Positions 4,740 to 10,867 of a DNA stretch of 64,000 nucleotides are shown piece after piece. The position numbers and the translations under genes are program-made. Origin of the DNA: Escherichia coli (lineage in GTDB: Bacteria > Pseudomonadota > Gammaproteobacteria > Enterobacterales > Enterobacteriaceae); NCBI RefSeq assembly GCF_044324875.1, contig NZ_CP172185.1; one strand, 5' to 3'. The notes under the pieces were generated by a model, which saw only the letters and a program-made list of their open reading frames with translations, ran no database searches and was not told the DNA's origin. Positions within the stretch are counted from its first letter, which is position 1, and every line of letters begins with the position of its first letter.

Positions 4740-5111
4740 ATGCGTCTGGAATTTGTTTTGCCTTACCCGCCGCCGGTGAACACTTACTGGCACCGTCGTG
4801 GTGGTAAGTATTTTGTATCAAAAGCGGGGGAACGTTATCGTCGTGATGTCAGGCTTATTGTTCGCCAGCAGCAACTGAGATTAAGGCTGACCGGAAGACT
4901 GGGTATAAAAATCATCGCAGACCCGCCAGACAACCGCCGCCGTGACCTGGACAACATACTGAAAGTACCGCTGGATGCGCTGACCCATGCGGGGCTGCTT
5001 ATTGATGACGAACAGTTTGATGAAATTTATATCGTGCGTGGCGTGTCAGTACCTGACGGGCGTCTGGGAGTGAAGATTTACGAAATTACAGGTGGTAACA
5101 ATGGCGCGTGA
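4740..5111 (+). CDS. rusA: Holliday junction resolvase RusA
   Basis: 123 aa; RusA-like sequence with conserved acidic residues ([16 protein letters not shown]); RBS GGAAGGAGGGGA upstream. Confidence 0.85.
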
Positions 5112-5526
5112 TATTCAGCAGGTTATGGAGCGATGGGGGGCATGGGTGGCGAATAACCACGAAGACGTGGAATGGTCATCCATTGCCGCCGGATTCAAGG
5201 GGCTGATACCGTCAAAAGTAAAATCGCGACCGCAGTGTTCCGATGATGACGCGATGATTATCTGTGGTTGTATGGCTCAACTGAACCGGAACAACAGTGA
5301 TTTGCATGAATTGCTGGTTGATTACTACGTGTGTGGGATGACGCTGATGAAGTTAGCAAGGAAACATGGATGTTCTGATACGCATATTGGAAAGCGTTTG
5401 CAAAAAGCTGAAGGAGTGGTTGATGGCATGTTGATGATGCTGGGAGTAAGACTTGAGATGGATCGGTATGTGAGCGTAAATTATTCGATGTGCCGTAAAA
5501 CTCCGTCCTTCAGGGCAGGGATATAA
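5101..5526 (+). CDS. Late-gene antiterminator Q-like protein
   Basis: About 141 aa, directly upstream of the tRNA/lysis region; N-terminus [15 protein letters not shown] resembles the short Q type of Stx-family lambdoid phages as recalled; Cys-rich. Confidence 0.6.
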
Positions 5527-5709: not shown

Positions 5710-6813
5710 TCAGAACTGATAAGTCAAACCAACAGCGACAATATCATCGGTTAATACATCAGTTCTTTCAGTGAATTGATTCTTATCAAGCAGGTTGATT
5801 TTATAGTCTACGTATGTAGACATATTTTTGTTGAAGTAATAAGCAGCACCGACTTCAATGAATTTTTCAATGTATCCGTCATTATGTTTTTCAGGGATAC
5901 CAGTTTTGGTGGAAAGGTCTTTGGCTTTCGACTGGATATAAGCAAGAGACGGGCGCAAACCAAAGTCGAACTGATACTGTGCAACTACAGCGAAATCTTC
6001 AGTTTTATTGGCTACACCGTTGTAGCCGCCGGGCGAGTACTTGATTGCGCGGGTATTACGTGTTTCACCATAAGTGGCTGCCAGGTACAGATTATTCGCG
6101 TCATATTTTACGCTGGTAGCCCACTGTTCAGCTTTTTTACCTTTACCAAAAGTCGTCGCTTCCTGTGCATTGGTGCGATCGGCTGCACCATATGCAGCTA
6201 CAAAACCAAAGCCTTCATATTCATAACTGACAGAGCCGCCAACACCGTCGCCGTTTGAAGTGCCTGCATTGTCACGCTCATTTTTACCCAGATACTGAAC
6301 CGCAAAGTTCAGTCCATCAACCAGACCGAAGAAGTCGGTATTACGGTAAGTGGCAACACCACCTACACGACCCACGAAGAAGTTATCCCCGTTAACAGAA
6401 CCAGGCCCAAATTCAGGGAGGACATCAGTATAGCTTAATGCGTCATACACCACGCCATAGTTACGACCATAATCCAGAGAGCCAATATTTTCTAGTTTCA
6501 GGCCAGCGTATGCCAGACGGGTTTTGTCTCCTGCAGAGCCATCTTTTTCTGCCTTGTTGCCTTTGAATTCATATTCCCATTGACCAAAACCAGTTAACTG
6601 ATTGTTGATTTGGGTTTCACCTTTGAATCCAAGACGGGCATAAGTTCCATCACCTTCTTCTTTGGCGTTAGAAGAAAAGTAATGTTTACCCACTACTTTG
6701 CCATATAAATCCAGTTTATTACTGTTTTTATTATATATTTCTGCTGCATTTGCAGACATTGCCAGAAATACTGATGCTGCTACAGCAGAAAGTGCCACTG
6801 TTAAATTTTTCAT
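5710..6813 (-). CDS. Outer membrane porin (OmpC/NmpC family) moron
   Basis: Signal peptide [29 protein letters not shown], porin-type beta-strand composition, C-terminal aromatic residue; same position and orientation as nmpC in DLP12-type prophages. Confidence 0.85.
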
Positions 6814-7411: not shown

Positions 7412-7487
7412 GGCCCTTTAGCTCAGTGGTGAGAGCGAGCGACTCATAATCGCAAGGGCGCTGGTTCAAATTCAGCAAGGGCCACCA
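7412..7487 (+). tRNA. tRNA with anticodon CAU, ileX/ileZ-like (tRNA-Ile2 reading AUA, or Met)
   Basis: Cloverleaf folds by hand: acceptor GGCCCTT/AAGGGCC, D-arm GCTC..GAGC, anticodon loop CTCATAA, T-arm GCTGG-TTCAAAT-TCAGC, 3' CCA; close to recalled E. coli ileX. Confidence 0.85.
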
Positions 7488-7488
7488 A

Positions 7489-7565
7489 CCGCTACTAGCT
7501 CATCAGGAAAGAGCGTCAACCCTTTAAGTTGAGTGCGCTAGGTTCGATTCCCCGCTGGCGGTCCA
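7489..7565 (+). tRNA. tRNA-like element, probably degenerate (arg-tRNA-like architecture)
   Basis: Acceptor 6/7 bp, good D-arm and perfect anticodon stem, canonical T-loop TTCGATT, but T-stem has 2 mismatches and loop CCTTTAA lacks U33; ends CCA. Confidence 0.35.
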
Positions 7566-7980
7566 GCGCCGACTTACCTCAGTCGGCAGAACAGTTTAGT
7601 TGTAACCATCAGGCCACCACTTCAATTCCGGTAGTCGGCACTAAATTTCCAAGCTCGTGCTCACGGCCTGCTTCATATCCGCGCCAGGTCCGTCGCGATT
7701 AAACCACAGGGCTTTTCAGGAGGGGCCACAGAGAGCGTCACACTGACCATTCCCTGTGGCTTGTGCTGAGATCCGGTCAGTGAAATTGTGCAAAGGGAAT
7801 CTTCGGGAGCTTTGGGCAGAATGTCAGTTATTGATGTTGACATCCTCCACACCCTGAAGGTCGGGGTTTTACGGCGCACTGGATAAAATACCTGAACAAA
7901 CAGCCTCTTCGTGCGGCTTTTTTATAACGAGATTCTGACTTGCTGCCGTCCGTAATGTCGGATGGCGGAGGTGAGGGACT

Positions 7981-8253
7981 ATGAGAATGGACGAACGATA
8001 CAGTAACGCTGCATACGGCAGCGCAGGACTTGTTGCGTTCTTTGCCAGCCTGTCACTGCAGGATTGGGGATTTATTATCGGCGTGGCGTTCAGTATCATT
8101 CTTGGCGTTCTTACTTATCGCCTTAACAAACGGGAGCAGGAAAAACGAACCCGCATATTGCTCGAAATTCTGGAACGAACTAATGCCGGTAATGTTCCGG
8201 CTACGGCACATGCTGTGGCTGAGATTGCGAAAAAGGCACCAAAAGAAATATGA
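7981..8253 (+). CDS. Holin (two predicted transmembrane segments; dual-start MRM motif)
   Basis: 90 aa, hydrophobic stretches LVAFFASLSL and FIIGVAFSIILGVLTY, charged C-terminus; SD GGAGGTGAGGG; immediately upstream of lysis genes. Confidence 0.6.
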   Translation: MRMDERYSNAAYGSAGLVAFFASLSLQDWGFIIGVAFSIILGVLTYRLNKREQEKRTRILLEILERTNAGNVPATAHAVAEIAKKAPKEI

Positions 8254-8409
8254 CGAATATCCCGGGAGTGAGGGGATAATATACCTTTTAACAAAATCCG
8301 GGAACATGAAACGCCCGGAACGTTTCATGAGGCATGCCCCGTGGGGAGCAGGGCATAACTGTGCGGAATAGCTTTCATTGTGATATCAATAATCACGGTA
8401 TTCAAAATA

Positions 8410-8787
8410 TTACGGGCCTGTGGGATCAGGTTGTTTTTTGTCTGATTCCAGAGGGAAGGGACGCTGTTTCGGTTCTCTGAACTTTAGTGATAATGAATTG
8501 AAAATCCTCATTTTTTGCTGCCATGCATAATGTCTGTCCCATGAACAGGGGGGGCTCAATTCTTCATTCACCCATGCGTTAATATCTTGTTTCAGGTGTT
8601 GAAGCATACGGGGTGTTAATGCACTCATAATAATATCCAGCGTTTTATGCGAGAGTTTACCGTAAGGGTCTGCAAGGATGCTGCTCGTTGCTTCGTTATT
8701 ATCCACCATAAGTGGAAGTAGCGCTGATTTAACTTTTTCTGTCATTAGTTGCAAAAATCTACTGCGCAAATTTTCTTTACTGTTCAT
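8410..8787 (-). CDS. Hypothetical protein (125 aa) on opposite strand between holin and endolysin
   Basis: Clean ORF in an otherwise plus-strand late operon; no recognised domain. Confidence 0.45.
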   Translation of the reverse strand: MNSKENLRSRFLQLMTEKVKSALLPLMVDNNEATSSILADPYGKLSHKTLDIIMSALTPRMLQHLKQDINAWVNEELSPPCSWDRHYAWQQKMRIFNSLSLKFREPKQRPFPLESDKKQPDPTGP

Positions 8788-8910
8788 TTCTGAAGCCTCA
8801 TCTGTTGTCGTTTGGTTTTCCTGAACGGGTATGTTTATGAGACATGCTGGTACTGGATTATATACCTGATATATCCAGGATTATAAACCTTTAGATCCTG
8901 ATAAATATAC

Positions 8911-9444
8911 ATGAACGCAAAAATCAGATACGGCCTGTCGGCTGCCGTTCTGGCGCTGATTGGTGCTGGCGCATCTGCTCCTCAGATACTTGATCAGTTT
9001 CTGGACGAAAAAGAGGGTAACCACACAACGGCATACCGCGATGGGTCCGGCATCTGGACCATCTGTCGGGGTGCCACGATGGTGGATGGAAAACCCGTTT
9101 TTCCCGGAATGAAGCTGTCGAAGGAAAAATGCGACCAGGTTAACGCTATTGAACGTGATAAGGCACTGGCATGGGTGGAGCGCAATATTAAAGTACCTCT
9201 GACCGAACCACAGAAAGCGGGTATTGCGTCATTCTGTCCCTATAACATTGGCCCCGGTAAGTGTTTCCCGTCGACGTTTTATAAGCGGCTTAATGCCGGT
9301 GATCGAAAAGGCGCCTGCGAGGCGATTCGCTGGTGGATAAAGGATGGTGGGCGTGACTGCCGTATCCGTTCAAATAACTGCTATGGACAGGTTATTCGTC
9401 GTGACCAGGAAAGCGCATTAGCCTGTTGGGGGATAGATCAGTGA
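8911..9444 (+). CDS. Endolysin, lysozyme with N-terminal signal-anchor-release (SAR) domain
   Basis: 177 aa; N-terminal hydrophobic [16 protein letters not shown]-x8-D-x5-T catalytic spacing ([16 protein letters not shown]). Confidence 0.85.
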
Positions 9445-9908
9445 GCAGAGTCGCCGCGATTATTTATGCTCTGGTTATCTGCATCATCGTCTGCCTGTCG
9501 TTGGCGGTCAATCATTACCGTGATAACGCCATAGCCTACAAAGAACAACGTGATAAAAAAGTCAGTGAGCTGAAGCAGGCGACCGCCACCATCGCTGACA
9601 TGCAGCAGCGTCAGCGTGATGTTGCTGCGCTCGATGCAAAATACACGAAGGAGTTAGCTGATGCGAAAGCTGAAAATGATGCTCTTCGGCGCAAGCTTGA
9701 TAATGGTGGCAGGGTGCTCGTCAAAGGAAAATGCCCTGTGCCATCCTCAGCCGAAACCTCCAGCGCCTCCGGCATGGGCAATGATGCCACCGTCGAACTC
9801 TCTCCAGTTGCTGGACGAAACGTTCTCGGTATCCGGGACGGAATTATCCGCGACCAGACAGCACTGAGAACGCTTCAGGAATACATCAGGACGCAATGCC
9901 TTCGATGA
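9441..9908 (+). CDS. Rz-like inner-membrane spanin (i-spanin)
   Basis: N-terminal TM segment [19 protein letters not shown] then coiled-coil-like region; probable GTG start overlapping endolysin stop. Confidence 0.65.
9661..9867 (+). CDS. Rz1-like outer-membrane lipoprotein spanin (o-spanin), embedded in Rz in +1 frame
   Basis: Lipobox MVAGCSS, proline-rich [11 protein letters not shown]; fully nested within Rz. Confidence 0.6.
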
Positions 9909-10108: not shown

Positions 10109-10540
10109 TGCCATTACAAAAGCCACTCCCTACAGAGTGGCTTTGATAATGGCTTATACCCTACACGGGATAACTTAACTGATATCCCTTTTAACGGATA
10201 AAGGTATTCAAGCCTGACACATCATGCGCTGTATCGTCGCTGTATTCCCGCATTAACCATGACCGTAGCCCGACGGGGAACTCCTTCTGCGCGAGTGTGC
10301 GGGAATAATCAAAAACGATGCACACCGGGTTTTTACCGCGCTAATGATTCGCGGGTTTGTCCCTCATGCTCGCCAGTCCGGTGCGATGGTGGAAGAAACC
10401 GGAAGCTGTATTACAGAAAGTGCTACTACTGTATCCTGATGCGATGTATGTAATGTGAGTCAGATAATGGCACAGGATGTGGTGATGTGGCAGTCTGGAA
10501 CACAGGATATATTGTCAGAATAAGACCCGTAGGAATAAAA

Positions 10541-10867
10541 ATGAAAAGACGCCTTTCACTACTTTTTCTGTTATCTGCCCTGGCAGTGGGATGCTCGCAG
10601 CAAAAAGCTGATGAGCCCCGGCAATTAGTGACGGTGTATCCACGATATCCGGAATATGCTGCAGCAAATTATATCAAGGGGCTGGTTGAGGTTAAGTTCG
10701 ATATTGGTGCTGACGGGACTGTGACACGGATCGTTTTTCTCCGCTCAGAGCCTCATAATTTGTTTCGTGATGAAGTGGTGAAGGCCATGGCGAAATGGAG
10801 ATTTGAAAAGAATAGTCCCCGTCAGGGAGTGAAGAGACAATTTATCTTTACGCCATCACGTCCCTGA
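10541..10867 (+). CDS. Lipoprotein with TonB C-terminal-like domain (moron)
   Basis: Signal/lipobox MKRRLSLLFLLSALAVGC; C-terminal region GLVEVKFDIGADGTVTRIVFLRSEPHNLFRDEVVKAMAKWRFE matches the TonB C-terminal pattern (compare E. coli TonB GQVKVKFDVTPDGRVDNVQIL...FEREVKNAMRRWRYE). Confidence 0.6.
   Translation: MKRRLSLLFLLSALAVGCSQQKADEPRQLVTVYPRYPEYAAANYIKGLVEVKFDIGADGTVTRIVFLRSEPHNLFRDEVVKAMAKWRFEKNSPRQGVKRQFIFTPSRP

Follow-up and report, generated by a model that had tools for sequence, protein, structure and literature searches.

A conserved opposite-strand gene between the holin and endolysin genes of an Escherichia coli lambdoid prophage, possibly a moron-like cassette

The stretch of Escherichia coli DNA analysed here (the window; 64,000 nucleotides of contig NZ_CP172185.1, assembly GCF_044324875.1) is, at this locus, the late region of a lambdoid prophage. 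Between the holin and endolysin genes lies a minus-strand open reading frame (ORF) of 125 aa, which the initial annotation had singled out and which is borne out by both the ORF listing and the raw sequence, running from 8410 to 8787 with an ATG start. The features of the lysis region are the following.

7981-8253, plus strand: holin gene (phrog_1350, E 3e-29; NCBI's PGAP annotation pipeline gives 'phage holin family protein' for a genome with 99.9% identity)
8305-8356, minus strand: two adjacent hairpins downstream of the ORF, candidate weak terminator (repeat search and folding)
8410-8475, minus strand: read-through tail EPKQRPFPLESDKKQPDPTGP of 21 codons, lineage-specific, with the TAA stop at 8412-8410 (alignments)
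8476-8787, minus strand: core coding region, codons 1-104, a phrog_1853 member and predicted five-helix soluble protein (profile match, homologue lengths, dN/dS, AlphaFold)
8548-8554, minus strand: C7 run (G7 on the plus strand), coding Ser-Pro-Pro, a frameshift site (variants in other genomes)
8787-8785, minus strand: ATG start of the ORF (raw sequence)
8788-8910, minus strand: AT-rich spacer of 123 bp, shared by the ORF and the divergently oriented endolysin gene; putative leader and promoter region (belongs to the 448-bp cassette described below; conserved blocks)
8796-8799, minus strand: GAGG resembling a Shine-Dalgarno sequence, 8 nt ahead of the start codon at 8787 (raw sequence)
8857-8862, minus strand: TATAAT, resembling a -10 element, about 70 nt upstream of the ATG and within the conserved block GGTATATAATCC (raw sequence)
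8911-9444, plus strand: lysozyme-type endolysin gene, product with a hydrophobic N-terminus (phrog_7, E 7e-64; PGAP 'lysozyme')
9426-9908, plus strand: Rz-like i-spanin gene (phrog_13, E 4e-73)
9661-9867, plus strand: Rz1-like ORF embedded in the spanin gene, lipobox VAGC (translation only; no NCBIfam match)

The surroundings are those of a mosaic prophage late region. To the left of the ORF are a RusA-like gene and an ORF at 5092-5526, which returned no NCBIfam match and occupies the place of the antiterminator Q gene in the near-identical locus L001 (L numbers denote fetched loci). An OmpF/OmpC-type porin gene (5710-6813, minus strand) separates the antiterminator region from the tRNA genes; it matched the NCBIfam OmpF model with E 4.5e-156, under the curated cut-off, and is similar to the lc/nmpC porins known from other lambdoid prophages. 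Two tRNA genes (7412-7565, plus strand) stand just upstream of the holin gene and were called by ARAGORN as tRNA-Met (CAT) and tRNA-Lys (TTT), while PGAP gives the first as tRNA-Ile in a near-identical genome and the second is tRNA-Arg in sister genomes. The holin module (7968-8253) has about 74% DNA identity to holins on 45-75-kb E. coli plasmids, on which a lysozyme gene comes directly after the holin, and is rare in chromosomes (19 genomes), a pattern that suggests exchange between prophages and plasmid-borne phages. The endolysin gene is 93% identical at the DNA level to the R genes of many E. coli phages. Downstream of the spanin genes, a gene for a small protein with a TonB C-terminal domain (10487-10867, plus strand; TIGR01352, 48 bits with the cut-off at 27) is likely another late-region accessory gene.

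The ORF had been described as carrying no known motif, and this held throughout, with no Pfam match even at E ≤ 10, no NCBIfam match and no PADLOC match. Its sole PHROG match is phrog_1853 (E 4.8e-41; residues 1-102 align with positions 57-158 of the 159-position profile), a family in the category 'unknown function'. Positions 1-56 of this profile are an artefact, in which partial ORF calls (P0069, P0047) run in frame through the leader and represent no real protein. Homologue searches covering 5.8 billion and 1.8 billion proteins returned 63 clusters at 90% identity, all named 'hypothetical protein' and found in Escherichia, Shigella and Salmonella only. An intact frame of 104-106 aa was present in 93 of the 100 fetched loci, and homologues of this length finish ...LSLKFR at codon 104. 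The family is present in 674 of 5,426 complete E. coli genomes. Its O157-type 451-bp cassette was at least 99% identical in 621 records (631 of the 5,426 complete genomes match), and the backgrounds of this near-identical cassette include O157:H7, O26, O121 and others, among them non-STEC, commensal and animal isolates. In EHEC strain 86-24 it is located at 3,463,063-3,463,513 of NZ_CP017251.1.

Selection on the frame was estimated across nine lineages, down to 36% identity, and dN/dS ranged from 0.11 to 0.34 (Nei-Gojobori, where dS was unsaturated), which indicates that the ORF is under purifying selection. Relative to the O157-type copy (L005) there are 8, 13 and 29 differences at codon positions 1, 2 and 3, respectively. 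In a six-frame control only the ORF frame combined the lowest pN/pS (0.24-0.33) with zero stop codons, and the late-strand frames across the region were packed with stop codons. The initial annotation had taken a lack of conservation and of any transcript as the sign of a spurious ORF; conservation is not lacking, as the frame is conserved in about 100 loci, and in related prophages the family keeps its orientation opposite to the lysis genes. A frame left open by chance in a non-coding spacer, or conservation owed to the late strand, might be suspected from the AT-rich region, the many antisense ORFs of at least 120 aa elsewhere in the window and the missing Pfam or NCBIfam family. Both are very improbable against a length held at 104-106 aa down to 29-36% identity, a dN/dS well under 1 in the ORF frame only, changes clustered at third positions (29/50 against L005), a fold predicted confidently from just 16 sequences and the abundant stops of the late-strand frames. 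The dN/dS estimates and the six-frame control together reject a spurious ORF as far as sequence evidence reaches, and the ORF is almost certainly a genuine conserved protein-coding gene.

Alignment of the homologues also corrects the gene model. The upstream ATG (M1) is indicated as a better start than the internal Met used by PGAP because the N-terminal 14 residues are conserved across lineages, giving a product of 104 aa compared to the 90 aa annotated. In the window copy the frame runs on beyond this length. Codon 105 (8475-8473) is GAA here, while in every other lineage the alignments show a stop after codon 104, and DNA similarity to the other lineages starts at 8477, exactly at the lost stop codon. 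Since the homology begins at this point and the holin module has another origin, the alignments indicate that the stop codon was replaced at a recombination joint and that the 125-aa length is a by-product of the mosaic joint. The 125-aa form is thus the product of stop-codon loss, a point of which annotators should be warned. The window-type arrangement was found in 19 of the 5,426 complete E. coli genomes, many of them from poultry.

Loss of the stop codon raises the question of whether the window copy is a decaying relic of a real family, a pseudogene in the making that has lost both its stop codon and the convergent partner gene described below. In L001, L101 and L102 the PGAP annotation of the copy is that of a pseudogene ('incomplete; missing C-terminus'), with 'frameshifted' added in L102; the GAA in place of the stop adds 21 residues, and the lineage is rare. 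A 1-base deletion in the C7 run (G7 to G6) yields a truncated protein of 92 aa in the complete genome NZ_OY754357.1 (L102), making one frameshifted copy among the three other complete genomes of the window lineage that were compared, and further frameshifted variants are P0002, P0004 and P0005, the last two of them noted for the C7 run. The 104-residue core is, however, unbroken in the window, L001, L015 and L101, the tail is predicted to be disordered and need not upset the fold, and the PGAP label follows mechanically from the absent stop and a 90-aa reference that starts at the internal Met (M15). Substitutions within the lineage are too few for a selection estimate. We consider decay of this copy doubtful, and the 125-aa protein with its disordered 21-residue tail is predicted to be probably still functional.

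Across the family, frameshifts recur at two homopolymers, the C7 run (window 8548-8554) and an A-run close to the C-terminus, at the QQKK codons (L070, L071, P0017). They produce variant C-termini in several genomes, for which decay, sequencing error and switching are all possible.

The profile and structure checks that the initial annotation had proposed returned, besides the phrog_1853 match, a confident AlphaFold2 model (16 sequences) with pLDDT 82 overall and 83-92 over residues 1-100. It consists of five helices (residues 3-26, 31-39, 47-56, 59-76 and 85-100), and the core refolded alike in a second AlphaFold run as part of a linker fusion. Tail residues 105-125 have a pLDDT of about 55 and are disordered in the model. 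Foldseek searches with the model returned family members only from AFDB50 and none from BFVD, with no annotated fold resembled, and a PDB sequence search gave no informative match, the top one being a designed helical protein (E 8e-4). Three ORF homologues and three partner proteins matched no PADLOC-DB v2 family at E ≤ 1, placing neither protein in a known anti-phage defence or toxin-antitoxin family. Rfam detected no RNA family inside or near the ORF.

The protein is hydrophilic, with a GRAVY of -0.7 in the window and -0.4 to -0.7 across the family members computed. A role as a lysis protein (holin, antiholin, endolysin or spanin) was ruled out by this hydrophilicity, by the lack of any hydrophobic or membrane segment and by the lack of a lysis-category PHROG match. 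A DNA mimic or DNA-binding protein is disfavoured, as net charge swings from -7 to +4 between lineages. The conserved residues of the family alignment (P41, G43, W72, E76, S78, W83, D84, Q91, K92 and F96) would fit a binding surface better than a catalytic site.

The gene behaves as a unit of insertion. In a comparison of the Stx2a phage Stx2_95 with Stx2_12E129, a clean 448-bp piece present in the latter and absent from the former corresponds to the ORF together with its 121-nt leader, spanning from the stop codon of the partner gene to a point 6 nt short of the endolysin start codon; in Stx2_95 the partner stop and the endolysin start are separated by about 31-36 nt. In the Qin prophage of K-12, essQ, ydfR and rrrQ are contiguous with no such gene, and it was not found in the prophages Sp11 and Sp17 of O157:H7 Sakai. 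The gene is therefore inserted between genes that are adjacent in relatives. Its base composition is also unlike that of its neighbours, with a G+C of 0.40-0.41 over 8350-8950 compared to 0.48-0.54 in the holin, endolysin and Rz genes. The census of fetched loci showed the gene oriented against the lysis genes throughout the prophage loci.

Distant homologues (29-33% identity) were also found outside prophages (L098 980-1297; L099 4001-4300; L100 980-1279), downstream of a gene for a multi-pass membrane protein and in surroundings with TraG_N, an integrase and a ribosomal L31 paralogue, which look like conjugative-element DNA. The distant homologues of 99 aa have an internal deletion. The initial annotation had held that genes on the opposite strand inside late operons are usually independently expressed cargo. 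The cargo half of this statement agrees with a real conserved gene on the opposite strand, its low G+C, the 448-bp indel, its absence in Qin and its non-phage relatives, and the comparative sequence data show cassette behaviour; the half concerning independent expression fared less well.

A minus-strand sigma-70 promoter was sought by consensus scan and none passed, and the TATAAT has no good -35 nearby. The block GGTATATAATCC containing it is conserved in four lineages (the window, O157-type, L004 and L006), and the upstream alignment places GAGG, GAAG or AAGGA in other lineages at the same site as the GAGG of the window. Downstream, hairpin 1 (CATGAAACG-N7-CGTTTCATG; 8305-8329) and hairpin 2 (ATGCCCC...GGGCAT; 8334-8356) are candidate weak terminators, the minus-strand fold of 8280-8412 having -36.7 kcal/mol (z = -2.6) and an interrupted U-tract (UUCCCGGAUUUUGUU). 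In canonical loci the ORF stop lies about 11 nt from the partner stop or overlaps the partner gene, and because only about 11 nt separate the two stops, the canonical arrangement contains no terminator belonging to the cassette itself. The literature held nothing on this gene, and no transcript, ribosome-profiling or protein evidence was found. Independent transcription of the gene is plausible from these signals.

In other lineages (L003 3400-3500, plus strand; L002, L007, L008, L073 and L096) a structured element replaces the leader upstream of the ORF. It consists of CGCCAGTG-loop-CACTGGCG within a longer stem (-36 kcal/mol, z = -4.0), with near-invariant stem arms, variable loops and, in some lineages, a T-run after it. 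The window lacks this element, for which Rfam gave no match.

A newly found feature of the family is its linkage to a partner gene. In most divergent lineages the ORF is convergent with a late-strand gene encoding 185-268 aa, and the 3' ends of the two abut or overlap by up to 33 nt. Partner genes in the fetched loci, all on the late strand, are located as follows.

L002, 3792-4598, late strand: partner gene
L003, 3827-4468, late strand: partner gene
L006, 3355-4023, late strand: partner gene
L007, 4338-4895, late strand: partner gene
L008, 1710-2264, late strand: partner gene
L096, 4318-5100, late strand: partner gene

At its C-terminus the partner has a conserved domain, about 95 aa long (...RIGRCMGYLQVAAEIE...DNPPFKK.P..W..PG..YLKGR), which matches the C-terminal part of phrog_1085 and also phrog_26186 (both PHROG 'unknown function'). 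Its N-terminal parts are variable, the version from Stx2 phage 86 having a DUF1327 (YdfR) domain there. In Stx-type phages of E. coli the two genes occupy the holin-endolysin gap; in L007-L010 they stand upstream of the holin gene, and Salmonella (L096) has the pair too. The partner domain is confined to E. coli, Shigella and Salmonella, the same range as the ORF. In the O157-type loci the ORF is intact and the partner is reduced to its first 38 nt and a tblastx trace; the gap from holin to ORF (L005 3742-3999; L004 3242-3499) opens with the first 10 codons of a DUF1327 gene and then a stop, and contains further faint partner remnants, which shows that the partner was lost through an internal deletion. 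The window holds no partner trace. By this comparison of lineages, the ancestral state is an ORF convergent with the partner gene, which is missing in the window.

This linkage brings in a possible, though clearly less probable, account and the main rival to a moron-like cassette, namely that the ORF is half of a two-gene module. Its product would regulate or neutralise the convergent partner, or antisense transcription would damp late read-through into the endolysin gene, so that the pair would serve to control lysis or the action of the partner, leaving in the window an orphaned half. Consistent with a module, every divergent lineage has the convergent 3' ends abutting or overlapping by as much as 33 nt, the pair travels jointly between sites (the holin-endolysin gap, upstream of holin in L007-L010, and Salmonella L096), the two families have an identical narrow taxonomic range, four of the five GenBank phage records with the partner domain also carry the ORF, and partner remnants persist in partner-less loci of the O157 type. 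On the other hand, Stx2_95 has only the partner, while the window, the O157-type loci and the conjugative-element-like loci have only the ORF and purifying selection persists, with a dN/dS of 0.14 between two partner-less lineages. Folding the ORF linker-fused to the partner domain gave no confident complex (AlphaFold pTM 0.45, partner pLDDT 50-75; from a paired alignment of only 10 rows and with no contact map or PAE), and no toxin-antitoxin or defence family was matched. An obligate toxin-antitoxin pair was rejected, as each gene occurs alone (Stx2_95; O157-type loci).

A more specific form of the two-gene reading is that of an undescribed module, in lysis cassettes of lambdoid prophages of the Shiga-toxin type and others, in which the five-helix protein, made in the lysogen, blocks partner-type proteins in cis or from co-resident or superinfecting phages, with an effect on lysis timing or on the exclusion of rivals. 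We consider this unlikely. If true, it would account for intact orphan copies in bacteria with several prophages.

The reading we prefer is that of a moron-like cassette coding a small soluble binding protein that is probably made in the lysogen, and we give this whole chain about an even chance of being right; the two-gene module is ranked as its main rival and the decaying copy as the second. The cassette, of about 440 bp, would be a self-contained moron among the late lysis genes of lambdoid prophages in E. coli, Shigella and Salmonella. Transcription would run leftwards from the 123-bp AT-rich spacer (TATAAT, 8862-8857), and translation would start from GAGG-N8-ATG. Such expression would not depend on the Q-antiterminated late transcript and would therefore most likely take place in the lysogen. 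The protein would most likely act through binding another protein, because neither enzyme-like nor membrane features are seen in it and its net charge differs between lineages; candidate targets are a host or incoming-phage factor, or proteins with the partner C-terminal domain.

We counted in favour of the moron-like cassette that the gene is kept intact in lineages without the partner and is found outside prophages. Counted against it were the weak expression signals, the lack of any search result hinting at a target or activity, and the PGAP pseudogene label together with the frameshift in one of three other genomes of the window lineage. For the present the gene is one further conserved hypothetical accessory gene. 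The family is, however, present in about 12% of complete E. coli genomes, within the lysis cassette through which phage and Shiga toxin are released, and either a protein made in the lysogen or antisense transcription at this place could affect lysis timing, toxin release or prophage competition.

A moron is an inserted accessory gene carrying its own expression signals, a concept said to go back to Juhala and colleagues in 2000, and the classical examples from lambdoid late regions are bor of phage lambda and the prophage porin lc/nmpC. Like these, the ORF is a small opposite-strand gene between late genes that are adjacent in relatives, and its base composition differs from that of these late genes. 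The window also holds the opposite-strand porin and, after Rz, the TonB-C-terminal-like gene as accessory late-region genes. The ORF has, however, no similarity in sequence or structure to Bor, Lom or the porins, and its product is neither a lipoprotein nor a membrane protein. In contrast to the classical morons, its own promoter and terminator are only candidates, and the canonical arrangement leaves no room for a terminator.

The holin-endolysin gap is filled in the K-12 Qin prophage by YdfR (DUF1327, PF07041), encoded between essQ and rrrQ. YdfR is on the late strand and unrelated in sequence to the ORF, which does not belong to DUF1327 as it has no match to PF07041. A functional analogy can be drawn with paired phage inhibitor or immunity proteins, which are likewise small, soluble and helical and often closely linked to one particular neighbouring gene. 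Compared to toxin-antitoxin-like or anti-defence pairs, the ORF differs in having no PADLOC match, in that it and the partner are each found alone, and in the unconfident co-fold. The closest known relatives are members of its own family (46-80% identity), WP_000138558.1 from O157:H7, WP_001063217.1 and YP_794053.1 (orf6 of Stx2-converting phage 86), which resemble the window ORF in position and orientation beside the endolysin gene. Other phrog_1853 members have 104-106 aa, whereas the window copy has 125 aa and is without the usual convergent partner. The window ORF adds an atypical member to a family that is catalogued but uncharacterised, and it fits the familiar architecture of lambdoid genomes.
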